34,394 nucleotides of DNA, from assembly GCA_947085305.1 (NCBI GenBank), contig CAMTVV010000107.1, positions 1-34,394 of the forward strand. The letters are read 5' to 3'. This DNA is from an uncultured Nitrospiraceae bacterium. GTDB taxonomy: Bacteria; Nitrospirota; Thermodesulfovibrionia; Thermodesulfovibrionales; UBA9159. The stretch's first letter is position 1. Every line of letters begins with the position of its first letter. The position numbers and the translations under genes were made by a program. Shown one piece after another: positions 1,605 through 33,812 of the stretch. The notes under the pieces were generated by a model that did no database searches, had not been told where the DNA came from, and saw nothing but the letters and a program-made list of their open reading frames with translations.

Positions 1605-1740
1605 TAATACAAACGCATTAAGTAAGTTGACATAATTCTTTAGTGTTGTCATTCCCGCTTGTCGGGAATCCTTCTTAAAGAAAGATGCCGAACAAGTCGG
1701 CATGACAGAAAATGTAACATTATTTATTGCGTTTGTATTA
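1605..1740. repeat. MITE-like element bounded by inverted repeats and containing two short GC hairpins
   Basis: Exact 13-bp inverted termini: TAATACAAACGCA at 1605-1617 and TGCGTTTGTATTA at 1728-1740, extending imperfectly to about 27 bp. Inside are hairpins ATTCCCG-cttgt-CGGGAAT and ATGCCGA-acaag-TCGGCAT, nested in TGTCAT...ATGACA. Confidence 0.6.
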
Positions 1741-3613: not shown

Positions 3614-4399
3614 GTGCATACCGTTGAGTCGCCAGAATCGATTTTGAAGTGTGGGTTAGCCGAGCTTTCCCTCGCATATTCCCACGTCCAGATCAGGACA
3701 TTCATGACCTATCTCTCCGAGCTGAAGAAATGGAACAAGGCGTACAACCTCACTGCCTTAAAAACGGACGAAGATATAATCGTAAAGCATTTCCTGGACT
3801 CGTTACTCTATCTTAAGGCAATACCGGAGGGTGAGGTGAGTGTTATGGATGTGGGAAGCGGCGCCGGGTTCCCGGGAATACCGATAAAGATTGTCAGGCC
3901 TGAGATTGCGATGTATCTTGTAGAGCCGTCGAGGAAGAAGGCGAGCTTCCTGCGCCATATCATCAGCGCCCTCGGACTTGAAAAGATTGAGGTTGTGGAG
4001 AAAAGAATTGAGGAGATCAAAGCATTGTCGGTCGACGTCGCGGTGACGAGGGCCCTGTTTGACATAAGGGATTTCTGCAGGAAGGCATTTCCCTTGCTAA
4101 AAGAAGGTGGAAGGCTTATTGTGAGCAAAGGCCCAAAGGTGAATGAAGAACTGAAAGCAGCAAAGAGGATGGATTATGAGTTATTGACCCTGACCTTGCC
4201 CCCTTCGAAGATAAAACGTTTTATCGTGGTGATTGCCAAAGGAGATCAAGAACCAAAAACAGCAGGAAAACTTAATCCAGCAAGGCTCGACAATGCACAA
4301 TCAAACAGCGCCGACGTATGCGTTAACGCTGAATGCCGCCTGCGAAAAGCCGGATGTAAAGGGTTCGAAGCATGTCCTGGATTTAAGTCAAGAGCCTGA
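3614..4399 (+). CDS. rsmG: 16S rRNA (guanine527-N7)-methyltransferase RsmG (GidB) with about 50-aa C-terminal extension
   Basis: SAM-binding motif VMDVGSGAGFPGIPIKI, then YLVEPSRKKASFL and VVEKRIEE as in GidB. Lies in the synteny rsmG-parA-parB. GTG start, so the exact start is uncertain. Confidence 0.85.
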   Translation: MHTVESPESILKCGLAELSLAYSHVQIRTFMTYLSELKKWNKAYNLTALKTDEDIIVKHFLDSLLYLKAIPEGEVSVMDVGSGAGFPGIPIKIVRPEIAMYLVEPSRKKASFLRHIISALGLEKIEVVEKRIEEIKALSVDVAVTRALFDIRDFCRKAFPLLKEGGRLIVSKGPKVNEELKAAKRMDYELLTLTLPPSKIKRFIVVIAKGDQEPKTAGKLNPARLDNAQSNSADVCVNAECRLRKAGCKGFEACPGFKSRA

Positions 4400-4412
4400 A
4401 AGCCTGCCGTCA

Positions 4413-4428
4413 TGTTCCACGTGGAACA
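4413..4428. promoter_or_regulatory. parS: parS centromere-like site (perfect 16-bp palindrome)
   Basis: TGTTCCACGTGGAACA matches the conserved chromosomal parS consensus tGTTNCACGTGAAACa. Located 14 nt after the rsmG stop. Confidence 0.85.
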
Positions 4429-4649
4429 TTTGCCCCTCCTTCCATTTTCTTGCCTTTTCACCATTTTTTGATACACTGGAAAATAAAACGGCAACCAGGA
4501 GGTTTATATGAGATATTTCTTTTTAATGATAGTTGTCCTGGCGTGGTCTATGAGAAGGCTGACAGGCGTTCATGGGAAGCGATGAAACTGTTTTTTGCCG
4601 AGATATTCAGATAGGGGAATGAGTATAAAAACACGAGGAGGTATTGGAC

Positions 4650-5045
4650 ATGGCAAGGGCTAAGAAGGTAAAACAACTCAGCTTTACCCTGCCGACGAGG
4701 GCGGGACTGCTTTCGGATGTGACCAGCGCCGTTGCAGACGCAAAGGTGAACATCACCGCAATATGCGCTTACGAGATGGCGAAAAACGCTTACTTCATGC
4801 TCGCCACAGACAGCGCTGCGAAGGCGAGGAAATCCCTTGCTTTCCTGAGGATAGGGATCGAAATAGAAGATGTTGTTGTGAAAATGCCTAACAAGGCGGG
4901 AGAGCTGCGGAAGGTGGCGAAAAGGATTGCGGACGCAGGGCTCAATATTGATTACATGTATGGAACTGCGGCAGCGGGAAAATCTTCAATGTGTGTCTTC
5001 AAAACATCAGATGATAAAAAGATGGTTAAGGTGATCAACAAATGA
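4650..5045 (+). CDS. ACT-domain-containing protein (tandem ACT-like halves)
   Basis: Two repeats of the ACT-like pattern (LPTRAGLLSDVTSAVADAKVNI... and MPNKAGELRKVAKRIADAGLNI...). ATG at 4650 lies 8 nt after GAGGAGG; the track start at 4644 is TTG. Confidence 0.65.
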   Translation: MARAKKVKQLSFTLPTRAGLLSDVTSAVADAKVNITAICAYEMAKNAYFMLATDSAAKARKSLAFLRIGIEIEDVVVKMPNKAGELRKVAKRIADAGLNIDYMYGTAAAGKSSMCVFKTSDDKKMVKVINK

Positions 5046-5419
5046 GGCAGGAGAATTTCCCGGAACAGGCTATAAAGAATAGTCACCGCTTATCGCGCCT
5101 GAGGGTTGTGGAGTTGGTCGTTCCAAATAGCACAGTGCAGCAGATTGACTATCTGTTCCACGCCCTTGCCCGGAAGCGCTCAGATCAGTTACACTTAATA
5201 ATATGAGCGTCAAACCCGCAGCCGAAAAAGAGTTCTGTATTCACCTCGAAAAGAGGGTGATCGAGAGGGTGAGCAGGGGGATTCCCATGGATATGAGCCC
5301 CGACCTTGTTCTCCGGGTATGCCATTTCCCTTTGCCTTCTCTGACGGGCATTCAGTGCCGTGTAGCTCTTGATGGCACTCCCTGCCCGCATAGCGGTCCC
5401 TACGGCAACAACTGAAAAA

Positions 5420-5435
5420 TGTTCCACGTGGAACA
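5420..5435. promoter_or_regulatory. parS: parS centromere-like site (second identical copy)
   Basis: Identical TGTTCCACGTGGAACA, 47 nt upstream of the parA ATG. Confidence 0.85.
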
Positions 5436-5482
5436 TTACGCAACCTTGCCCTGCTGCCCTTAACTCTGTTAGAATTACGGCA

Positions 5483-6262
5483 ATGGCCAATATCATTGCC
5501 ATCGTAAACCAGAAGGGCGGGGTCGGAAAGACCACCACTGCTGTTAATCTTGGGGCTTCCCTTGCCCTGGCTGAGAAGGACATCCTCCTGATAGATACGG
5601 ACCCGCAGGGCAATTCCACAAGCGGGCTCGGCATAAACCGTGATGAGATAAAGAAAAGTCTCTATGATGCCTATGCCGGCAGGTGCGTGCCTGACGAAGC
5701 TATTGTGTCCAGCGTCATGCAGCATCTGGATGTTATCCCTTCCACCGTGGATCTTCTCGGCGTAGAGGTGGAACTGGTGGGAAAAGAGGGCAGGGAAAGC
5801 ATTCTTTCCAGGATCATAGCCGACTTAAAAAAGGAGTATAAATACATACTTATCGATTGCCCTCCCTCTCTGGGCTTGCTCTCTCTGAATGCCCTTGTGG
5901 CAGCGAATTCGGTAATCGTGCCGGTTCAATGCGAATACTATGCCCTTGAGGGGCTCAGCCTTCTTACAAGGACTCTGCATCGAGTGAGAAATTCCTTTAA
6001 TCCCTCCCTTGAGATGAAGGGCATCCTTCTTACGATGTTTGATACAAGGAACAGTCTGTCAGAACAGGTTGCTCAGGAAGTGAGAAAGCACTTTGGAGAA
6101 CAGGTATTCGACACTGTGGTCCCCCGTAATGTAACCCTTGCCGAGGCGCCGAGCCACGGCAAACCCATAATCCTTTATGACGCCCGCTCCAGTGGGGCGC
6201 AGAGCTATCTATCCCTGGCAAAGGAGATTCTGAATGAAAACGGCGTTGGGCAGGGGTCTTGA
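5483..6262 (+). CDS. parA: Chromosome partitioning ATPase ParA/Soj
   Basis: N-terminus MANIIAIVNQKGGVGKTTTAVNL (deviant Walker A), ILLIDTDPQGN, ILIDCPPSLG. The upstream extension to 5369 would read through parS and is not homologous. Confidence 0.9.
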   Translation: MANIIAIVNQKGGVGKTTTAVNLGASLALAEKDILLIDTDPQGNSTSGLGINRDEIKKSLYDAYAGRCVPDEAIVSSVMQHLDVIPSTVDLLGVEVELVGKEGRESILSRIIADLKKEYKYILIDCPPSLGLLSLNALVAANSVIVPVQCEYYALEGLSLLTRTLHRVRNSFNPSLEMKGILLTMFDTRNSLSEQVAQEVRKHFGEQVFDTVVPRNVTLAEAPSHGKPIILYDARSSGAQSYLSLAKEILNENGVGQGS

Positions 6263-7061
6263 ATCCCTTCTCCCTGAAAAGACTCAGGAAATCATCAATA
6301 TTGACATCACCAGGATAATCCCCGGAGACCAGCAGCCAAGGAAGGTCTTTAAGGACACAGCCTTGCAGGACATGGCTGCTTCCATAAAGGAAAAAGGGGT
6401 ATTGCAGCCGATCATCGTTTCACGGACAGGGGACGGCGCCTTCAGGCTTATTGCCGGGGAGAGAAGGTGGAGGGCCTCATCCCTGGCAGGACTCAAGAAG
6501 ATACCCGCCATTGTGAAGGAAGTTTCTTCTGCAGATTCCCTCGAGATAGCGCTGATCGAAAACATCCAGAGGGAAGACCTCAATCCTATGGAGACGGCAG
6601 GGGCCTTTAATCGCCTGCTGAAGGACTTTAATCTCACGCAGGAGGAGCTTTCCGTAAAGGTCGGAAAGGACCGGGCAACCGTGGCAAATTATCTTCGGCT
6701 TTTGAAGCTCCCGGAGGAGATAAAGACATTCGTCAATGACGGCTCCCTGAGCATGGGCCATGCCCGCGCCATTCTCTCGATTGAAGGAAAGGCCAACCAG
6801 GTGGAGGCAGCAAGAAGGATAATCCATAAGAGCCTGAACGTCAGGGAGTCCGAAGCCCTTGCGAAAAAATGGAGCGCCGGGGCAAAAAAGAAGACAGTTC
6901 ACCATAAGAAGGATCCGCAGATAGAATCCCTTCAGGAGAAGCTTATCCGGAGCCTCGGCACAAAGGTCCGCATCCACCATAAAGGGAAAAAGGGGAGGAT
7001 AGAGATAGAATACTACTCTCTGGATGAACTGGACAGGCTCTTAGATATTTTGATTCAGTAA
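6234..7061 (+). CDS. parB: Chromosome partitioning protein ParB/Spo0J
   Basis: LGRGLESLLP N-terminal motif, ParB box GERRWRAS, HTH region LTQEELSVKVGKDRATVANYLRLL. Overlaps parA by 29 nt. Confidence 0.9.
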   Translation: MKTALGRGLESLLPEKTQEIINIDITRIIPGDQQPRKVFKDTALQDMAASIKEKGVLQPIIVSRTGDGAFRLIAGERRWRASSLAGLKKIPAIVKEVSSADSLEIALIENIQREDLNPMETAGAFNRLLKDFNLTQEELSVKVGKDRATVANYLRLLKLPEEIKTFVNDGSLSMGHARAILSIEGKANQVEAARRIIHKSLNVRESEALAKKWSAGAKKKTVHHKKDPQIESLQEKLIRSLGTKVRIHHKGKKGRIEIEYYSLDELDRLLDILIQ

Positions 7062-7066
7062 AAGAA

Positions 7067-8473
7067 CTATTTACCTATACAGAACTCGCTGAATATCCTG
7101 TTCAGTATATCTTCTGTCGTCACTGAACCAACGATCTCACCCAGTCTGTCCATGGCATCACGCATCTCCACTGCCACGACTTCAAGAGGCAAAGAAGCTG
7201 TTAAGGCGGAAGCTGCATTGCTGAGAGCATTGACGGCATTGTCAATGGCAACTTTGTGCCTGATATTGGTAACAATGACCCCTGCGCTTTCGTCAAAAAA
7301 ACCCCTGGCTTCTGATTTTTGATTCTTCTTCAAGGATACATCCAGTATCTTCTCCTTCAGCATATCCAGCCCCGCTTCCGTCTTAGCTGAGATTTTCAGT
7401 ATGTATTCAGAATATGGTCTGAGTGTTGATTCAAGATTCCTTTGATTCGGCAGGTCTGACTTGTTTATTGCGATGATGGCCTCTTTCCCCCTGATTTTTT
7501 CGAGGACCGCCATATCCTCATTTTTCAGCGAACAGGTCCCGTCAATGATCCCTATTACCAGATCTGCGTCATCAATGGCCCGGAGACTTCGTATAACGCC
7601 TTCTTTTTCGGCCATCTCATGGGTCTCCCTTATTCCTGCAGTATCCATAATCCTGGTGGGAAGACCATTGATATTGAGGTACTCCTCAAGAATATCCCTT
7701 GTCGTCCCTGCAATTTCAGTCACAATCGCCCTGTCTCTTTTCAGAAGTGCATTGAGCAGAGAAGACTTACCCACATTGGGTCTTCCCACAATGGCAACCT
7801 TAAGTCCCTCGCGGAAGAAACGGCCTTCTTCAAAGCTCTTTGAAAAGGCAAGAAGACTTTTTTCAATATCCCGAACTTCGTTCAGGATACTTTCCATTGA
7901 TGCAGGCTCGATCTCTTCTTCGGGAAAATCTATGTATGCCTCGATATGCGCGCACACAGATAGCAGCCTGTCCCTCAATCCGGTGATCTTTTCGGAAAGC
8001 CCTCCGGAAAGCTGCTCCAGCGCTACCCTTCCCGATTCTTCGGTCTTTGCCCTGATTAGGTCGATCACCGCCTCTGCCTGCGACAGATCAAGCCTGCCGT
8101 TCAGGAAGGCCCTTTTTGTGAACTCCCCTGGTTCTGCAAGCCTCGCTCCATGCTGCAGGACCAGCTCGAGGACCTTTCGCACGGCAAGGATGCCGCCATG
8201 GCAGTTTATCTCGACTACGTCTTCCTTCGTGTAGGTATGCGGCGCCTTCATCACTGCAACGAGTACTTCGTCAATGGTTGTTCCGGCTGAAGGGTTTTTT
8301 ATGAAGCCGTAAGTAAGGGTATGGGATTCCGATTCCTGGAGTTTTCTCCCTTTTGGAGATGAGAAGAGTTTCTCTACGATCGGCAGGGCGTCTTTCCCGC
8401 TCAGCCGCACAATACCAATGCCTCCCTCACCAAGGGGAGTGGAGATGGCTGCGATGGTGTCATCAAGAAACAC
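7067..8473 (-). CDS. mnmE: tRNA modification GTPase MnmE (TrmE)
   Basis: DTIAAISTP N-terminus, G-domain GRPNVGKSSLLN / DTAGIR / NKSDL, C-terminal FCIGK motif. Converges on parB with a 5-nt gap. Confidence 0.92.
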   Translation of the reverse strand: MFLDDTIAAISTPLGEGGIGIVRLSGKDALPIVEKLFSSPKGRKLQESESHTLTYGFIKNPSAGTTIDEVLVAVMKAPHTYTKEDVVEINCHGGILAVRKVLELVLQHGARLAEPGEFTKRAFLNGRLDLSQAEAVIDLIRAKTEESGRVALEQLSGGLSEKITGLRDRLLSVCAHIEAYIDFPEEEIEPASMESILNEVRDIEKSLLAFSKSFEEGRFFREGLKVAIVGRPNVGKSSLLNALLKRDRAIVTEIAGTTRDILEEYLNINGLPTRIMDTAGIRETHEMAEKEGVIRSLRAIDDADLVIGIIDGTCSLKNEDMAVLEKIRGKEAIIAINKSDLPNQRNLESTLRPYSEYILKISAKTEAGLDMLKEKILDVSLKKNQKSEARGFFDESAGVIVTNIRHKVAIDNAVNALSNAASALTASLPLEVVAVEMRDAMDRLGEIVGSVTTEDILNRIFSEFCIGK

Positions 8474-9956: not shown

Positions 9957-10358
9957 TTACACAAACAAGGCTTCAAAATCTCTTGGAGTTATGATCTTAA
10001 TGTTCTTATATCTTTTTATATCCAGCAGATCAGAGTCTCCTGTCACAAGATAATCCGCCTTTGCCGCCACGGCGCAGGCAATAATATTGTCATCATCAGC
10101 ATCCCGGCAAATGTCCGCGATCTCGATGGTATGTTCAATGACTTGACTAGTCGCTTCACTTACAGGGTCTATCGCCAAAGCTAATTCTTCATGCGAGAGC
10201 CGGAATTTCTTCGAGAGGATGCTCCCAAGTTCCTTAGTAATGTACGGGCATGAAATAAGTGAGAATTCGCCTATGCGCGCCCTGTGCAATAGTCTTGAGC
10301 AAATCCCTTCAGTGATAATCGCCGCAATCAGAACATTTGTATCAAATACGGCAATCAT
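9957..10358 (-). CDS. PIN-domain toxin (putative TA toxin, PIN family)
   Basis: MIAVFDTNVLIAA N-terminus with the first catalytic Asp, and a later YLVTGDSDLL motif. 4-nt ATGA overlap with the upstream antitoxin gene. Confidence 0.8.
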   Translation of the reverse strand: MIAVFDTNVLIAAIITEGICSRLLHRARIGEFSLISCPYITKELGSILSKKFRLSHEELALAIDPVSEATSQVIEHTIEIADICRDADDDNIIACAVAAKADYLVTGDSDLLDIKRYKNIKIITPRDFEALFV

Positions 10359-10693: not shown

Positions 10694-12070
10694 TTACGGA
10701 AAAATCTTCCCCGGGTTCAGGATGTTCTTCGGGTCAAAGAGTTTCTTGATCCCCTTCATCAGGGCAAGCTCGCTTTTCTTGAGCTCCATCCCTATATACG
10801 GCGCCTTAGTGAGCCCCACACCGTGTTCGCCGGATATGGTTCCGCCGAGGCTGAGGGTCAATTTGAAAATATCTCTGACAATGGCATCCGCTTTTCTGTA
10901 TTCCTCCTCATTGGATCTGTCGATCATCAGGTTTACATGGACGTTGCCGTCTCCTGCATGGCCGAAATTAACTATCTTAATCCCAGTATCTTCAGAGAGT
11001 CTCCTCAGGCTGGTGAGCATCTGAGGGATCCTGTCCCTTGGCACCACGATGTCCTCGCCTATCTTTCCCGGACTGATGTGATAGAGGGCAGGGGACACCC
11101 TTCGTCTGCACTCCCATAATCTGTTTCTTGCAGCCTCATCCTCAGCCATGCTCACATCAGCGCCCAGCTTCATGCAGATGTCTGCCACCTTTCCGGCCTC
11201 TTTCTTAATGGCCTCAGGATGTCCGTCCACCTCAATGAGAAGGAGGGCTTCCACGTTGTCAGGGAGGCCCAGAGGCTGGAACTTCTCGACGGCCTTTATG
11301 GCTTCCCTGTCCATGAACTCCAGGGTTCTCGGGATGATCCTTGAGGAAATTATCTGGGATACTGCCTTGCCGGAGGCCTCCAGGTCGGTAAACAGACAGA
11401 GGAGGGTGAGGATGTCCTCAGGGAGGGGAAGGAGCTTCAACCGTATCTTTGTCGCCACTGCCAGGGTGCCTTCAGACCCGACAAGGAGCCTCACAAGGTC
11501 ATAGCCCACCACTCCCTTATATGTTCTGACCCCGACATTGATAATATCTCCACCGGGAAGCACTGCCTCTATCTCCATGACATAATCTTTTGTAACGCCG
11601 TATTTCAAAGCCCTTGGACCCCCCGCATTTTCTGCCACGTTTCCGCCGATGGTGCAGAAATTCATACTGGCAGGGTCAGGAGGGTAAAAAAATCCGTGGT
11701 CTTCCACCTCCCTCTGCAGTCTGCCGTTAATGATCCCGGGCTCCACAAGCACTGTGAGGTTGCCTTTTTCAAGCTCCAGTATCCTGTTCATTTTTTCCAT
11801 GCTCAAAACCACAGAGCCTTTGAGCGGAACCGCTCCACCGGACATGCCTGTGCCGGCGCCACGAGGGACTACAGGTATTCCGTTTTCATAGGCGAACTTC
11901 ATGATCTGAGCCACATGCTCGGTGGTCTCCGGCCAGACGACAGCAGAAGGCGCCCCCTCAAGCCCGCTTGCATCAAAGCCATAGCATACGAGGTCTTCAG
12001 GGTTAGAGGAGCTTTTTATGTGAGGTAGCGCATCGAAGATGTTCATAATAATAGTCGTGACGCGTAACAT
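10694..12070 (-). CDS. FAD-linked oxidase (GlcD / D-lactate dehydrogenase family)
   Basis: FAD-binding PCMH-type region (VVPRGAGTGMSGGAVP) and C-terminal GGTISGEHGVGL motif. The first 8 codons (MLRVTTII) are encoded by a repeat element; the alternative ATG at 12046 (MNIFDAL...) may be the true start. Confidence 0.85.
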   Translation of the reverse strand: MLRVTTIIMNIFDALPHIKSSSNPEDLVCYGFDASGLEGAPSAVVWPETTEHVAQIMKFAYENGIPVVPRGAGTGMSGGAVPLKGSVVLSMEKMNRILELEKGNLTVLVEPGIINGRLQREVEDHGFFYPPDPASMNFCTIGGNVAENAGGPRALKYGVTKDYVMEIEAVLPGGDIINVGVRTYKGVVGYDLVRLLVGSEGTLAVATKIRLKLLPLPEDILTLLCLFTDLEASGKAVSQIISSRIIPRTLEFMDREAIKAVEKFQPLGLPDNVEALLLIEVDGHPEAIKKEAGKVADICMKLGADVSMAEDEAARNRLWECRRRVSPALYHISPGKIGEDIVVPRDRIPQMLTSLRRLSEDTGIKIVNFGHAGDGNVHVNLMIDRSNEEEYRKADAIVRDIFKLTLSLGGTISGEHGVGLTKAPYIGMELKKSELALMKGIKKLFDPKNILNPGKIFP

Positions 12071-12137
12071 GTAATGCGTAACCCGTGATTAACAAAAATC
12101 CCTGAACTCGTCACGCGTCACCTGTCACGTGTTACGG
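12055..12137. repeat. Heptad-periodic inverted-repeat element (CGTRAC-type words), 5 + 4 heptamers
   Basis: Sequence: tcgtgac gcgtaac atgtaat gcgtaac ccgtgat - 18 nt - tcgtcac gcgtcac ctgtcac gtgttac gg. The arms pair imperfectly, and the mismatches between arms are all transitions. Lies between the smc stop and the glcD-like start. Confidence 0.75.
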
Positions 12138-17164: not shown

Positions 17165-18235
17165 ATGTCAGCACCACAGAGAAAGACAGATATCGGACCG
17201 CCTCACTATAAGGATTTCCTGCCGCCCGTGATCCAGAAGAATTACGGCGACTGGAAATATCACGAGATTATCAATCCCGGCGTTATGGTCCACGTGGCCA
17301 ACAGCGGCGATAAGATCTGGACGGTGAGGGTCGCATCGCCGAGGCTTCTGAGCACCGACACCATCAGGGACTTCTCCGCCATGGCCGAAAAGTACTGCGG
17401 CGGCTATATCAGATTTACAACAAGGAACAATGTCGAGCTGCTTGTTTCCGACGAAAAAAATCTCGAGCCTTTGCAGAAGGAGCTGAAGAGCAAGAATTAT
17501 ATGGTGGGCGGCATCGGCCCGAGAGTGAGCAATATCGTCCATACCCAGGGATGGATTCACTGCCATTCAGCGTGTACAGACGCATCCGGTATTGTTAAGG
17601 CGCTGATGGATGAATTTGCAGATTATTTCACAACAAAAGAAACACCCAACAAGGTCAGGCTGGCGGTCGCCTGCTGCGTGAATATGTGCGGCGCGGTCCA
17701 CTGCTCGGATATCGCTGTTGTCGCGATCCACAGAAAAGTTCCGGTTATAGACCACGACAAGATCAAGAACATCTGCGAGATTCCGTCCACAATCGCATCC
17801 TGTCCGACAGGCGCGATAAGCCCGGACCCTGCAAAGAAGAGCGTCAAGGTTAACAACGATAAGTGCATGTACTGCGGCAACTGCTTCACCGTCTGCCCGC
17901 CCATGGAGATCCATGACCCTGAATATGACGGAGTGGCGATCGTGGTTGGCGGTAAAGTCGGGAACCTCAGGTCCAACCCGAAATTCTCAAAGCTGGCTGT
18001 GCCGTTCATCAAGAACAATCCCCCGAGGTGGCCGGAAGTCACCGCAGCGGTAAGAAAGATCTTTGACGCATACATCGCCGGCGCGCAAAAGCACGAGAGA
18101 GTCGGTGAATGGGTTGAGAGGATCGGCTGGGAAAAGTTCTTTAAGGTCACCGGCTTGCCGTTTACCTTCCAGCACATCGATGACTTTGTGATAGCAAGGG
18201 AGACCTTCCGGACGGCGGCAACATTCAAGTGGTAA
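17165..18235 (+). CDS. dsrB: Dissimilatory sulfite reductase beta subunit
   Basis: Paired with dsrA. Cys motifs HCHSAC...[11 protein letters not shown] and ferredoxin domain CPTGA...[24 protein letters not shown]. Confidence 0.93.
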
Positions 18236-18311
18236 GAGAGCAGAGAAGGAAGGGGGGATATTGTCCCCCCTTTGTTTTATTATAATAACTACGTTTAAAC
18301 GGGGTGGCAGA

Positions 18312-18698: not shown

Positions 18699-20159
18699 AT
18701 GTCGCATAATTATCCGAGATTGGTTATTGCCGGGCTGAAAGGCGGCTCGGGTAAGACGACACTGTCCCTCGGATTAGTCAGGGCTTTGAAGGAAAAAGGC
18801 CTGAAGGTTGTGCCCTTCAAAAAGGGCCCAGACTATATTGATGCGGGCTGGCTTGCCAGCGCTGCAGAACATCCCTGCTACAATCTTGACCCTTTTTTGG
18901 TCGGCAGTGACCGCTTGTTGTCTTCTTTTATCACCCATGCAGGGGATTCGGATATCGCCATTATTGAAGGGAACAGGGGACTGTATGACGGTATGGACGC
19001 AGAAGGGACATACAGCACTGCTGAAGTCGCAAAGCTCCTTCGGTCACCGGTTATTCTCATCGTTGATTGTGCGAAAGTCACCCGCACTGTTGCAGCGATG
19101 ATTCTCGGAGCACAGAGATTTGACCCTGAGATAATGGTCAGGGGCGTTGTTCTGAACCGGATAGCAGGGAGCAGGCATGAGTCAGTGATACGGGCATCCA
19201 TAGAAAAATACTGCGGTCTTCCGGTTCTGGGGGCAATCCCGAGAACCGATTCAGGGGAGTTTCCCGAACGGCATATGGGACTGCTGCCGCATCAGGAGCA
19301 TCCCGATACCGCGAAGGCTATTTCTTTTGTGGAAGAGATCGCCGGGAGGTATCTCGATCTCGACGGTATCCTGAAGATCGCAAGGAGCGTTGAACCATTA
19401 GAAAAAAGCCGTGACGAGTTATCCGTAACGCGTAACGAGTTAAATAATGAGGGTAGTGCGTCTATTGTTCATCACGTATCACGCGTTACGCGTCACGGAG
19501 TAAAAATCGGAGTGGTCAGGGATTCTGCTTTTCAGTTCTATTACCCGGAGAACATTGAAGAGATGAAAGGATGCGGGGCTGATATCGTCGAGTTCAGCGC
19601 ACTTTCAGAGAGGCAGTTGCCTGATATCGATGCCCTCTATATAGGGGGTGGTTTCCCGGAAACTCATGCTATCTCACTTGCAGAAAATACCCGGTTCCGT
19701 GACTCTCTCCGGAACGCCATCGAGGAAGGTCTGCCGGTATATGCTGAGTGCGGCGGGCTTATGTACCTGGGTGAAGGACTTTTGCTCGATGACAGGATAT
19801 ACCCCATGGCGGGCATCTTTCCTTTAGTCTTTTCCCTCGAAAGAAAACCACAGGCCCACGGATACTCTGTTGCGGAAGTGGTGAAGAAAAACCCCTTTTA
19901 TCCTGAGGGAACGATTTTAAAAGGGCATGAGTTCCATTATTCGAAGCCGTGTAATGTCCTTGAGGAGACGAACGGGTTTTCGTATGCCTTCAGGATGAAA
20001 CGGGGACAGGGGATATACGAAAAGATGGACGGCATCTGTTATAAGAATGTCCTTGCCACATATACACACCTCCACGCCTTTGGCGCGCCTGAGTGGGTTG
20101 AAGGTCTGGTCAAAAAGGCCGCAGAATTCAGGGAAAGGAAGGCGTTACGAAAAGTCTGA
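18699..20159 (+). CDS. dsrN: DsrN (cobyrinic acid a,c-diamide synthase homolog; siroheme amidase)
   Basis: N-terminal CbiA-type P-loop GLKGGSGKTT. C-terminal glutamine amidotransferase domain (VRDSAFQFYYPEN, YIGGGFPE, AECGGLMYL). Position after dsrABD. Carries a 90-nt repeat element in the interdomain linker. Confidence 0.88.
   Translation: MSHNYPRLVIAGLKGGSGKTTLSLGLVRALKEKGLKVVPFKKGPDYIDAGWLASAAEHPCYNLDPFLVGSDRLLSSFITHAGDSDIAIIEGNRGLYDGMDAEGTYSTAEVAKLLRSPVILIVDCAKVTRTVAAMILGAQRFDPEIMVRGVVLNRIAGSRHESVIRASIEKYCGLPVLGAIPRTDSGEFPERHMGLLPHQEHPDTAKAISFVEEIAGRYLDLDGILKIARSVEPLEKSRDELSVTRNELNNEGSASIVHHVSRVTRHGVKIGVVRDSAFQFYYPENIEEMKGCGADIVEFSALSERQLPDIDALYIGGGFPETHAISLAENTRFRDSLRNAIEEGLPVYAECGGLMYLGEGLLLDDRIYPMAGIFPLVFSLERKPQAHGYSVAEVVKKNPFYPEGTILKGHEFHYSKPCNVLEETNGFSYAFRMKRGQGIYEKMDGICYKNVLATYTHLHAFGAPEWVEGLVKKAAEFRERKALRKV
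19409..19498. repeat. Heptad-periodic inverted-repeat element (CGTRAC-type) inserted in frame within dsrN
   Basis: Sequence: ccgtgac gagttat ccgtaac gcgtaac gagttaa - 25 nt - tcatcac gtatcac gcgttac gcgtcac gg. Terminal 8-bp perfect stem CCGTGACG/CGTCACGG. Length 90 nt, which is 30 codons. Same word family as 12055-12137. Confidence 0.75.
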
Positions 20160-20160
20160 G

Positions 20161-20805
20161 GTGAGTAATTTGACTTTATTAAAAGAAGAGATTAAGGATG
20201 CTTTGCTAGAAAGAGATTTTGAGAAAATAGTTCGACTTGCTCTTGGAAATAAAAAGGTGTTCAGCATATTGATTTCATTGGCCTATGACAAGGAGGCCCT
20301 TCTCTGCTGGAGGGCGATCGAGGCCATGGGAAAGGCTGCCGGCGCTGTTGCTGAGAAAGACCCTTTGACGGTGAGGAATATCGTTCAGCGACTCATATGG
20401 TCGGTGAGGGAGGAGTCCGGGGGGATTGGATGGAGCGCGCCCGAGATGCTTGGGGAGATAGTCATAAACAGCCCGCTTACCTGTGAGGACATCCCCCCCA
20501 TCATACTTTCATTTCATGAGGAGGAAAGCCTTCTTAAAGGCGTACTGTGGGCCATGGGAAGGATTGTCCATGCGGGGATAAGCGGGATGGAGGGTTCTTA
20601 TGAAGTCGCAAAGGCAGCGCTTAACCATAAAGACCCTTCTGCCAGAGGGCTTGCGCTCTGCGCAATTCCGGAAACAAGAATCGTAGAAACTGCGAACAAG
20701 ATTAAGGATATGATGGCTGATGAGGGAAGGCTTAAAATTTATGAGAACCATGAACTGTTCGAGACACGGGTGGGAGATATCGCCCGGAAGGTATTGAGCC
20801 ATTGA
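20161..20805 (+). CDS. Uncharacterised, apparently helical protein embedded in the dsr locus
   Basis: The ORF frame continues from 20047, but that part overlaps dsrN. Plausible starts are GTG 20161 or TTG 20170 (GAGGTG 5 nt upstream). The sequence looks helix-rich by eye (no prediction run); family not recognised. Confidence 0.6.
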   Translation: MSNLTLLKEEIKDALLERDFEKIVRLALGNKKVFSILISLAYDKEALLCWRAIEAMGKAAGAVAEKDPLTVRNIVQRLIWSVREESGGIGWSAPEMLGEIVINSPLTCEDIPPIILSFHEEESLLKGVLWAMGRIVHAGISGMEGSYEVAKAALNHKDPSARGLALCAIPETRIVETANKIKDMMADEGRLKIYENHELFETRVGDIARKVLSH

Positions 20806-33568: not shown

Positions 33569-33642
33569 TGGGGAGTCGTCCAATGGCAGGACGGCAGACT
33601 CTGGATCTGCTTATAGGGGTTCGAATCCTCTCTCCCCAGCCA
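33569..33642 (+). tRNA. tRNA-Gln (anticodon CTG), CCA encoded
   Basis: Manual cloverleaf: acceptor TGGGGAG/CTCCCCA, D arm GTCC/GGAC, anticodon arm GCAGA-CT CTG GA-TCTGC, T arm AGGGG-TTCGAAT-CCTCT, discriminator G, CCA. Confidence 0.9.
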
Positions 33643-33726
33643 TTTTAGCCGTCAGCTTTCAGCGGTCAGCTTTTAGCCGGATGGTTTAAGTTTTTTGCTG
33701 ATTGCTGAATGCTAATAGCTGATTGC
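33643..33726. repeat. Heptad-periodic inverted-repeat element (TCAGC-type words), 5 + 4 heptamers, between two tRNA genes
   Basis: Sequence: ttttagc cgtcagc tttcagc ggtcagc ttttagc - 19 nt - gctgatt gctgaat gctaata gctgatt gc, followed by TTTTTTT. Begins at the nucleotide after the CCA of tRNA-Gln. Confidence 0.75.
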
Positions 33727-33736
33727 TTTTTTTATT

Positions 33737-33812
33737 GGTCCCATCGTCTAGTGGCCTAGGACGTGGCCCTCTCAAGGCTAAAACACGGGTTCGACTCCCG
33801 TTGGGACCGCCA
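33737..33812 (+). tRNA. tRNA-Glu (anticodon CTC), CCA encoded
   Basis: Manual cloverleaf: acceptor GGTCCCA/TGGGACC, D arm GTCT/GGAC, anticodon arm TGGCC-CT CTC AA-GGCTA, T arm ACGGG-TTCGACT-CCCGT, discriminator G, CCA. Confidence 0.9.

Follow-up and report, generated by a model that had tools for sequence, protein, structure and literature searches.

The dsrN gene studied here contains, in frame, a 90-nt palindromic element made of heptanucleotide units, and a sibling element occurs between genes of the same contig. This raises the question of how such a repeat can reside within a core enzyme gene whose reading frame stays open, and whether it is there because it is tolerated, selected as nucleic acid, mobile or removed before the protein is made. 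We approached this question in the window, meaning the whole 34,394-nt stretch of DNA that was analysed, and in related loci. We consider it probable that the element is a resident heptanucleotide-array hairpin repeat that occupies the disordered linker of DsrN and is translated through.

Results

The host open reading frame (18699–20159, plus strand) is uninterrupted and encodes a CobB/CbiA-type a,c-diamide synthase of 486 amino acids, as indicated by the NCBIfam model NF002204/TIGR00379, Pfam and synteny; the product includes the stretch KSRDELSVTRNELNNEGSASIVHHVSRVTRHGV. The gene was identified as dsrN from the gene order dsrA-dsrB-dsrD-dsrN...dsrC-dsrMKJOP in relatives. Pfam domain limits place CbiA at residues 8–193 and GATase_3 at residues 269–462, and the element (19409–19498, plus strand) lies in frame between them, confirming the position in the interdomain linker given in the original prediction. 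Its translation corresponds to linker residues ~238–268. The segment was said to span exactly 30 codons; its total length is indeed 90 nt, but it is not codon-aligned, running from the third base of Ser238 to the second base of Gly268. Conceptual translation of this region contains the peptide stretch SVTRNELNNEGSASIVHHVSR.

The left arm (19409–19443) consists of five direct units of NCGTRAC type (ccgtgac, gagttat, ccgtaac, gcgtaac and gagttaa). It is followed by a 25-nt spacer, or loop (19444–19468), and by a right arm (19469–19498) of four inverted units of GTYACGN type (tcatcac, gtatcac, gcgttac and gcgtcac) plus GG, all on the plus strand and all as first described. The perfect 8-bp terminal stem also holds, as the terminal 8-mers CCGTGACG and CGTCACGG are exactly complementary. 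A repeat finder reports an inverted repeat with arms at 19409–19438 and 19469–19498 (30 nt, 70% complementary), or of 19 nt and 89% in a slipped register, and TRF detects a period-7 array at 19479–19497. The predicted RNA fold of the element has an energy of −35.2 kcal/mol (z −3.5). With up to one mismatch, CGTRACNCGTRAC has eight matches in the window, all inside 19409–19498 or 12055–12137, against 0.08 expected from shuffles; none of 100 shuffles reached eight.

Pattern matches and comparison identify 12055–12137 as a sibling element, which shares the CGTRAC/GTYACG word and the direct plus inverted design. It lies between the stop of smc (12143) and the likely start of an FAD-oxidase gene (~12046), both on the minus strand; it is kept in L001 and L002 and missing from the syntenic spacer of L086. 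The 34-kb contig contains one intergenic and one coding copy of the word. The proposed sharing of words and architecture applies to the arms, which are 69% and 78% identical, but not to the spacers, which are unrelated (20% identical). Recent conversion between the two copies is not supported, as their arms are 69–78% identical to each other versus 90% to the L001 ortholog. Two further palindromic heptad elements use other words. The first (1741–1842) has GCTCATG units followed by ATGAGCT/ATCAGCT units, sits between convergent oppF-like and peroxiredoxin genes, contains period-7 arrays at 1767–1795 and 1802–1823 (TRF) and folds at −41.3 kcal/mol (z −5.9). The second (33643–33727) has NNTCAGC units followed by TGCTGAN units, with TRF arrays at 33643–33679 and 33695–33727, and fills the spacer between the tRNA genes at 33569–33639 and 33737–33809. 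Three different heptad words are thus found side by side in one 34-kb window.

The codons formed by the element bear on whether it is translated. When 12055–12137 is threaded through the dsrN frame, the aligned stretch acquires two stops, TAA as its codon 5 and TGA as its codon 12. In dsrN, units 2 and 5 (gagttat and gagttaa) carry TTA at the positions where a canonical unit would read TAA or TGA in frame. TTA stands at both stop-prone codons in five of the six full-length copies compared; L089 has TCG/TCA and L088 is without the second codon. The right-arm orientation (GTYACGN) contains no stop in any of the three frames, and the frame stays open because the element length is a multiple of three. 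Avoidance of TAA and TGA at the stop-frame units would have no rationale in an untranslated segment, and we therefore predict from these codons that the 90 nt are translated as part of DsrN.

The same evidence argues against removal at the RNA level, which had been suggested at the outset, as it does against the wider notion that an intron or intein is removed before the protein is made. An Rfam scan of the whole window matched two tRNAs only, with no intron and nothing over the element, whose 90 nt fall far below the size of an intron. The 30 residues are without intein motifs and too short for an intein. The element recurs in NCBI, Logan and JGI assemblies that are independent of one another, which contradicts an assembly artefact. 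We regard this group of explanations as effectively refuted and their probability as negligible.

In an AlphaFold model, pLDDT is below 50 over ORF residues 237–264 and about 90 in the two flanking domains. Counts of codons with non-synonymous and with synonymous changes range from 6:2 to 16:2 in the element, whereas the remainder of dsrN gives 48:80 to 106:165. The linker is hypervariable, the distance from ERHMG to AFQFYYPE being 68–117 amino acids across 40 close homologs and ~70 genome loci. The low pLDDT and the dominance of non-synonymous changes favour tolerance in a disordered linker among the three explanations originally offered.

At least six related lineages of Thermodesulfovibrionia (L001, L084, L085, L088, L089 and L090) carry an orthologous element in DsrN, and these relatives reach down to ~69–76% protein identity; a scan of genome contigs returned DsrN relatives at up to 64% identity. 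Ortholog length is nearly constant, with five alignable at 100 nt. The dsrN copy is therefore old, and neither a recent nor a unique colonisation.

This constancy also bears on the idea of a contingency locus, in which DsrN would be phase-variable because adding or dropping a single 7-nt unit puts the glutaminase domain out of frame and so inactivates it. In favour of this idea, units of 7 nt do not add up to whole codons, and arrays close to perfect occur in some lineages, such as GAGCAAC x4 in L057. In Haemophilus, phase variation is driven by heptanucleotide SSRs (PMC8262952, PMC12721329). However, the dsrN units match imperfectly (77–86%, TRF), and the three near-identical strains P0002, P0121 and P0122 all have the 30-codon length, differing by substitutions only and showing, in this small sample, no variation in unit number. 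Across diverged orthologs, length is essentially constant and unit counts are kept, except for a 6-nt deletion in L088 that preserves the frame. We consider phase variation very improbable.

The site turns over, as three close relatives have exchanged the element for other short-period repeats: L086 and L087 have unrelated words and L003 has 8-mers. L003 is 97–100% identical to the window outside a foreign tract of ~240 nt that spans the linker, and in L086 and L087 the differences are found only within the linker. The pattern is that of allelic homologous recombination in L003 and of linker-confined changes in L086 and L087, as judged from these alignments. We found neither an empty site nor a target-site duplication, as every close relative has some repeat there; the shortest DsrN linkers are ~19–20 residues shorter. 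A clean, lineage-specific insertion of 30 codons into a conserved linker does not describe this site, given that the linker is hypervariable, the element is orthologous in relatives and an empty site was not found. For the same reason, the dsrN copy may have arisen either by insertion or by growth in situ.

Heptad arrays are frequent in DsrN linkers generally. We identified 7-nt arrays in 16 of 73 linkers from loci of two phyla, Nitrospirota and Desulfobacterota, with lineage-specific words such as ATTAGGG/CCCTAA in L022, ATAGGCN/ATNGCCT in L004 and GAGCAAC x11 in L057. Arrays of the GTYACG word are also in frame in genes for an IleRS-type aminoacyl-tRNA synthetase, LpxK, TsaD, Pol III delta' and a histidine kinase, and arrays of other words are in frame in a helicase-like ORF of L013 and in a second DsrN loop of L022. 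The description of the colonisation as unusual is therefore not upheld. The linker word recurs close by in its own locus in the window, L057, L058 and L074, and non-heptad hairpin repeats occupy the DsrN linkers of L008, L020 and L061.

We counted 15 lag-7 arrays in the linkers (7.8 kb in total), 43 in non-ORF DNA (137 kb) and 17 in ORF DNA (1.29 Mb), a non-ORF share of 43/75, corresponding to a linker density ~6-fold that of non-ORF DNA and ~145-fold that of other ORF DNA. At lags 5, 6, 8, 9 and 10 the linkers have 0–2 arrays; another count by lag gave 36 arrays at lag 7, one at lag 5, five at lag 8 and one at lag 9. Linker occupancy did not correlate with the number of flank arrays (p = 0.22). 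The DsrN linker is, on these counts, a recurrent landing or retention site across Nitrospirota and Desulfobacterota, and the ~6-fold excess over non-ORF DNA hints at something beyond relaxed constraint.

Such a hot spot could be accounted for by a mobile, non-autonomous element resembling a MITE or REPIN, if it transposed into the linker from a copy elsewhere and was mobilised in trans by an enzyme recognising the hairpin or the word, with existing hairpins as targets. Same-word copies are dispersed in the contig and in more than 120 metagenome loci, the architecture is palindromic, and conservation of the word is expected from enzyme recognition. The syntenic counterpart of the intergenic element 12055–12137 in L087 retains the outer arms around a different interior; possible outer-unit remnants also flank the linkers of L087 and L086. 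In addition, the DsrN linker of L008 contains, in frame, a complex non-SSR palindromic element of the family of window 1645–1707, which slippage cannot make. Against mobility, the absence of a detected empty site or target-site duplication extends to the flanks of 19409–19498 and 12055–12137, where we found no direct duplication. The arms act as inverted repeats, but the 20% identity of the two spacers is unlike copies of one MITE, which would have common internal sequence. No transposase or RAYT gene was detected in the window, the sole candidate being a weak Y1_Tnp match in L087 (882–1586) without adjoining heptads, and only 9 of 120 metagenome arrays have the canonical inverted partner within 90 nt. 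Transposition into the linker is, in our judgement, improbable.

Conservation of the arms is harder to explain by tolerance. At third codon positions, orthologs show an identity of 0.80 and 0.77 in the two arms, 0.51 in the spacer and 0.48 in the rest of the gene, and the third positions invariant in four lineages are 15/23 in the arms versus 81/417 elsewhere (Fisher p = 5e-6). The arms are thus conserved per nucleotide rather than per codon. As the arms are not neutral, a pure tolerated-passenger model fails to predict their conservation. The pattern suggests that the heptad word itself may be maintained, either through conversion or re-seeding within the family or through selection at the level of the nucleic acid.

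Alternatively, the arrays may be selected cis-acting elements, either hairpins in mRNA or single-stranded DNA or rows of 7-nt sites for single-strand-binding proteins, which in dsrN would tune translation, co-translational interdomain folding or mRNA decay, with coding being incidental. This explanation, which we consider unlikely, draws its plausibility from arm conservation independent of codon position, a spacer that behaves like neutral third positions and a linker array density above that of non-ORF DNA. Fold stability is significant in the window, L001, L085, L022 and L004 (z −3 to −5), and all four window elements occupy positions that are probably transcribed, one at a 3' end, one in a 5' leader, one in a tRNA spacer and one inside a CDS. 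PMC4679880 discusses the case of CspB, for which each cold-shock protein monomer has been described as taking one heptamer. On the other side, RNAalifold on six orthologs did not support covariation (term +0.5), only one of 22 pairs showing a compensatory double change and many pairs being broken, and in both L084 (z −1.5) and L089 (z −0.2) the long hairpin has decayed. Close relatives substitute unrelated words (L086 and L087) or 8-mers (L003), the arrays of L057, L021 and L063 are purely tandem without an inverted arm, and the three words in one 34-kb window mean that no single sequence-specific reader fits. A further version is that the arrays are no passengers but previously unrecognised word-specific cis-elements, forming rows of 7-nt sites on single-stranded RNA or DNA, or hairpins, that sulfate reducers repeatedly place in the dsrN linker. 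The sequence coding for the disordered tether would then also serve to regulate or process the dsr transcript. The arm conservation, the neutral spacer and the linker density are compatible with this version, which we consider doubtful.

Discussion

We return to the probable explanation of a resident heptad-array hairpin repeat that is translated through the DsrN linker. Its design would be that of direct NCGTRAC units, an arbitrary loop and inverted GTYACGN units, and the source genome and many environmental bacteria would carry such repeats, mostly between genes. Arrays may arise and be reshaped genome-wide by slippage and hairpin-associated processes, persisting only where protein constraint is minimal. 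In DsrN, the repeat could be tolerated because almost any sequence of ~15–60 residues may serve as the tether between the ATPase and glutaminase domains.

If this is correct, short-period hairpin repeats can live for a long time inside an essential-pathway gene by occupying a disordered tether and losing only the bases that form stops. The DsrN linker may serve as an easily aligned marker for repeat birth, replacement and recombination across two phyla of sulfate and sulfite reducers. Its length and sequence are unfit for phylogeny or function calls, recombination of the tract being evident in L003. Loops of an IleRS-type synthetase, LpxK, TsaD and other proteins contain peptides (VTRHASR, VTSHESR and VTGYGLR, among others) that are best read as translated GTYACG arrays, not as motifs. 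Should the arm conservation reflect function, the element would represent a new kind of dual-use coding sequence.

Among known systems, the element is akin to heptanucleotide long SSRs and to in-frame palindromic repeats of the Rickettsia type. It also resembles REP, BIME and REPIN sequences in having two inverted arms of ~30 nt around a spacer (~80–100 nt overall), in the intergenic location of copies, often at gene 3' ends, and in the presence of several families per genome. In contrast to those, neither arm is a palindromic REP by itself, we saw no head of GTAG type, and the window is without a RAYT gene. Elhai and colleagues reportedly described, in 2008, small dispersed repeats of Nostoc that nest in heptamer arrays. 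They are similar in that short repeats lie inside one another, as in the outer arms and new interior of L087, and differ in organism and sequence.

Heptanucleotide long SSRs include cyanobacterial STRR, TAACTGA in Beggiatoaceae (PMC4679880) and GGGAATC in Xanthomonas and Nostoc (PMC4692102), and passages of both papers cite Mrazek et al. 2007 for the over-representation of 7-nt units. According to these passages, long SSRs share with our arrays the 7-nt units in short, imperfect arrays of 2–6 copies, the genome-specific words and probably the mostly intergenic location, as well as occasional inverted pairs forming potential stem-loops (PMC4692102) and the restriction of orientation by stop codons inside ORFs (PMC4679880). 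The arrays described here differ in typically comprising direct and inverted sets around a loop, in the several words per genome, in the stable translation of a copy inside a core enzyme and in the use of one protein linker as a hot spot across phyla. The hosts, Nitrospirota and Desulfobacterota, are phyla not named in the excerpts of PMC4679880 and PMC4692102 considered. In the literature on heptamer repeats of Beggiatoaceae, Xanthomonas, Nostoc and Haemophilus, we found no report on sulfate reducers or dsrN. As in long SSRs, lag 7 stands out from lags 5, 8 and 9, and tandem 7-nt units exceed chance by TRF, by the matches to the unit word and by the lag-7 excess.

Rickettsia palindromic elements (RPE) were reportedly described by Ogata and colleagues in 2000 as in-frame repeats in protein-coding genes. 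RPE are discussed in PMC1779305 and in the MITE review PMC10969869. They have complex sequence with conserved interiors and no 7-nt units, and they occur in a different phylum and lifestyle, whereas only the arms, that is the word, are common to the copies described here. The likeness lies in a dispersed palindromic repeat of ~100 nt that is in frame in genes and translated while sparing the fold. As in RPE, the repeat is found both in non-coding DNA and in unbroken ORFs, and the encoded peptide is predicted to lie outside the folded core, in the low-pLDDT stretch between the two Pfam domains.

Host gene and architecture of the element

The gene that carries the element (ORF 18699-20159) encodes a CobB/CbiA-type a,c-diamide synthase and is named dsrN because of the arrangement dsrA-dsrB-dsrD-[ORF 18699-20159]...dsrC-dsrMKJOP; family and gene order bear out the name originally given to it. 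The element (19409-19498) encodes residues about 238-268 of DsrN, which fall between the Pfam CbiA domain (8-193, then a helical extension) and GATase_3 (269-462). At 18249-18273, directly after dsrB, the sequence GAAGGGGGGATATTGTCCCCCCTTT and a T-rich tail behind it give a strong terminator-like hairpin. This hairpin extends over the opening bases of the listed dsrD ORF (18261) and may be an attenuator separating dsrAB from the downstream genes. The contig also carries a gidB, parA, parB and mnmE cluster (3614-8473), a grouping typical of origin-proximal chromosomal regions, and is therefore ordinary chromosome rather than a mobile element.

The left arm of the element consists of the heptamers ccgtgac, gagttat, ccgtaac, gcgtaac and gagttaa, followed by 25 nt and then by tcatcac, gtatcac, gcgttac, gcgtcac and gg. 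The 8-mers at the two termini are exact complements, and a repeat finder reports inverted arms of 30 nt with 70% complementarity, or 19 nt at 89% in a slipped register. Allowing at most one mismatch, CGTRACNCGTRAC matches eight times in the window, always within this element or that at 12055-12137, versus 0.08 matches expected from shuffles. TRF independently called a period-7 array at 19479-19497, plus three other places in the window. These results establish the predicted heptad element as real. As for its being a copy of the intergenic element at 12055-12137, the word pattern is indeed shared but the two copies have unrelated interiors. On the criteria examined, the element does not qualify as a MITE, for this last reason and for lack of a target-site duplication.

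The window holds four heptad palindromes built from three different words (1741-1842, 12055-12137, 19409-19498 and 33643-33727). The first adjoins a non-heptad palindromic element, GTTGTCATTCCCGC...GGGAATCC...CCGAACAAGTCGGCATGACAG (1605-1740), whose core (1645-1707) is nested in a larger 29-nt inverted repeat. On the minus strand, roughly 9 nt separate the end of the 12055-12137 element from the likely FAD-oxidase ATG downstream of it (12046-12137), with no obvious Shine-Dalgarno sequence between them; this placement recalls the start-proximal TAACTGA repeats described in PMC4679880.

Translation and disorder of the linker

In whatever frame three consecutive canonical CGTRACN units are read, they contain TAA or TGA, which rules out a canonical left arm within a gene; the right-arm orientation (GTYACGN) has no stops in any frame. 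When the intergenic copy is threaded through the dsrN frame, TAA and TGA fall at exactly two codons, both of which are TTA (Leu) in dsrN. Among the six full-length copies that were compared, five have TTA at both codons; L089 has TCG and TCA there, and in L088 the second codon is deleted. An AlphaFold2 model, for which 40 homologs were used, is confident in both the CbiA and GATase_3 domains and drops below pLDDT 50 over residues 230-257 of P0001, a shorter protein (ORF residues 237-264). Codons with non-synonymous versus synonymous change number 6:2 to 16:2 within the element, and 48:80 to 106:165 in dsrN outside it. The suggestion that the segment is removed at the RNA level is unsupported, as is removal from the protein, and the Rfam matches of the window are two tRNAs only. 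The element thus appears to be translated, and sits in what the model predicts to be a disordered tether.

Age and nucleotide-level conservation

The linker is hypervariable across DsrN (68-117 residues between two conserved motifs, ERHMG and AFQFYYPE). The related loci L001/L002, L084, L085, L088 and L089 (88, 75, 78, 75 and 70% protein identity to the window, respectively, in a close-homolog alignment) share this element in an identical register, and their spacers can be partly aligned with that of the window; L090 (69%) has a shorter version. This distribution contradicts a recent lineage-specific insertion. Upstream of its element, L090 also has an extra in-frame linker block of about 30 codons (about 1300-1390) containing two copies of GGGACAGTCCC. 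In a neighbor-joining tree computed with the linker removed, the linker type of the window is scattered among relatives with other linkers.

In distant ortholog pairs, four-fold degenerate sites of dsrN have reached saturation (identity 0.32-0.44), and element identity among orthologs is 0.62-0.82. Ortholog identities at codon positions 1/2/3 are 0.77/0.68/0.80 in the left arm, 0.73/0.73/0.77 in the right arm, 0.62/0.70/0.51 in the spacer and 0.84/0.88/0.48 in the rest of dsrN. Third positions invariant in four lineages make up 15/23 in the arms versus 81/417 elsewhere (Fisher p = 5e-6). The arms are therefore held at the nucleotide rather than the amino-acid level, a pattern that does not fit a pure passenger. 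A functional cis-element in the linker seems to us improbable and would be the interesting outcome. We found no covariation in the hairpin, which has become less stable in L084 and L089; the signal therefore fits word-level maintenance, spread of the cassette by recombination more recently than the gene diverged, or re-seeding from copies of the family.

The DsrN linker as a hot spot

We scanned DsrN loci from representative genomes of Nitrospirota and Desulfobacterota, taking at most 10 kb of flank per locus (1.39 Mb in the first set). Four-unit arrays numbered 36 at lag 7, versus 1, 13, 5 and 1 at lags 5, 6, 8 and 9. Lag-7 arrays numbered 15 in 7.8 kb of DsrN linkers, 43 in 137 kb of non-ORF DNA and 17 in 1.29 Mb of other ORF-covered DNA; other lags gave 0-2 arrays in the linkers. 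Counting the last three loci added, 16 of 73 linkers have an array, and linker occupancy shows no correlation with array number in the flanks (p = 0.22). In DsrN generally, the linker is a hot spot for such repeats.

The words are lineage-specific: ATTAGGG paired with CCCTAA in L022 (a model example of the direct-loop-inverted layout), ATAGGCN with ATNGCCT in L004, TCAGTNG in L013, GAGCAAC in L057 (11 units, purely tandem), CGCAACY in L021 and ATTACGA in L007. The linker word recurs elsewhere in the same locus in four cases: the window, L057, L058 and L074. Non-heptad repeats also occupy this site, namely an in-frame copy of the complex palindromic family of window 1645-1707, where it is intergenic, in L008 (about 10735-10835) and G/C-rich hairpin repeats in L020 and L061. 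The L022 DsrN has a second in-frame heptad array (CCCCTTA units, 10210-10251) in a CbiA-domain loop, reading TPYPLPLTPFH in place of a short HAEGSD.

Close relatives record turnover. L003 is 97-100% identical to the window across most of dsrN, but some 240 nt surrounding the linker (alignment columns about 551-790; L003 about 7140-7380) are foreign, being unlike the window, L001, L086 and L087, and contain a GTCACCGC-type linker. The informative sites form a clean 3...3/1...1/3...3 mosaic, and the gene is a recombinant into which allelic recombination brought the tract. L086 and L087 match the window to the linker edge on both sides and have a different short-period palindrome (GGGCA/GGACA-type units); here the change is confined to the linker.

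The intergenic element at 12055-12137 behaves likewise at its syntenic site: the window and L001 have it, and L086 lacks it. The corresponding smc/FAD-oxidase spacer of L087 (3210-3360) retains the outer CGTMATG-type arms around two different period-8 arrays, GTCAAAGT and TGATACTC, which suggests nesting or replacement inside a pre-existing hairpin. Near its dsr locus, L087 encodes a 234-aa protein with a weak Y1_Tnp (IS200/RAYT-like) match (882-1586); no heptad arrays flank this gene.

In-frame arrays in other genes

Searching metagenomes for three canonical CGTRAC units returned at least 120 loci. Among the matches listed, host organisms have 37-71% G+C, and arrays inside real genes read the stop-free orientation as VTRHASR, VTSHESR or VTGYGLR. 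Hosts among these matches include a histidine kinase and four genes with in-frame GTYACG arrays: a class I (IleRS-type) tRNA synthetase (Anticodon_1 domain region; L106 7164-7183, VTSYELR), LpxK (L138 6985-7004, VTGYGLR), TsaD (L147 915-934, VTGHGLR) and DNA polymerase III delta' (L176 587-606, VTRHASR). L013 has further in-frame arrays on the minus strand (17626-17698 and 20610-20645) in a helicase-like ORF of 1073 aa and its 367-aa neighbour, both identified by eye from the sequence, with peptides such as EHRDRKTENRKQKTKK. In-frame heptad arrays are not confined to DsrN.

Relation to known systems

We favor, with some reservation, the view that the element is a heptad-array hairpin repeat which is translated and tolerated in a disordered tether, and that this site time and again acquires, retains and swaps repeats of this sort. 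The original reading was broadly correct; the element has a longer history and a wider distribution than was supposed, and is of a more ordinary kind. According to published reports, 7-nt units are over-represented among bacterial long SSRs, and word-specific heptad families with occasional inverted pairs are known, cyanobacterial STRR among them. Also described are GGGAATC repeats in Xanthomonas and Nostoc (PMC4692102), TAACTGA repeats in Beggiatoaceae, whose orientation inside ORFs is limited by stop codons (PMC4679880), and the Rickettsia RPE, in-frame palindromic repeats in protein genes (PMC1779305, PMC10969869). The dsrN element combines the 7-nt units of a heptanucleotide long SSR with an RPE-like in-frame palindrome. 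New with respect to these systems are a hot spot that spans phyla within a single protein linker, turnover seen directly, and a nucleotide-level constraint that lacks an explanation.
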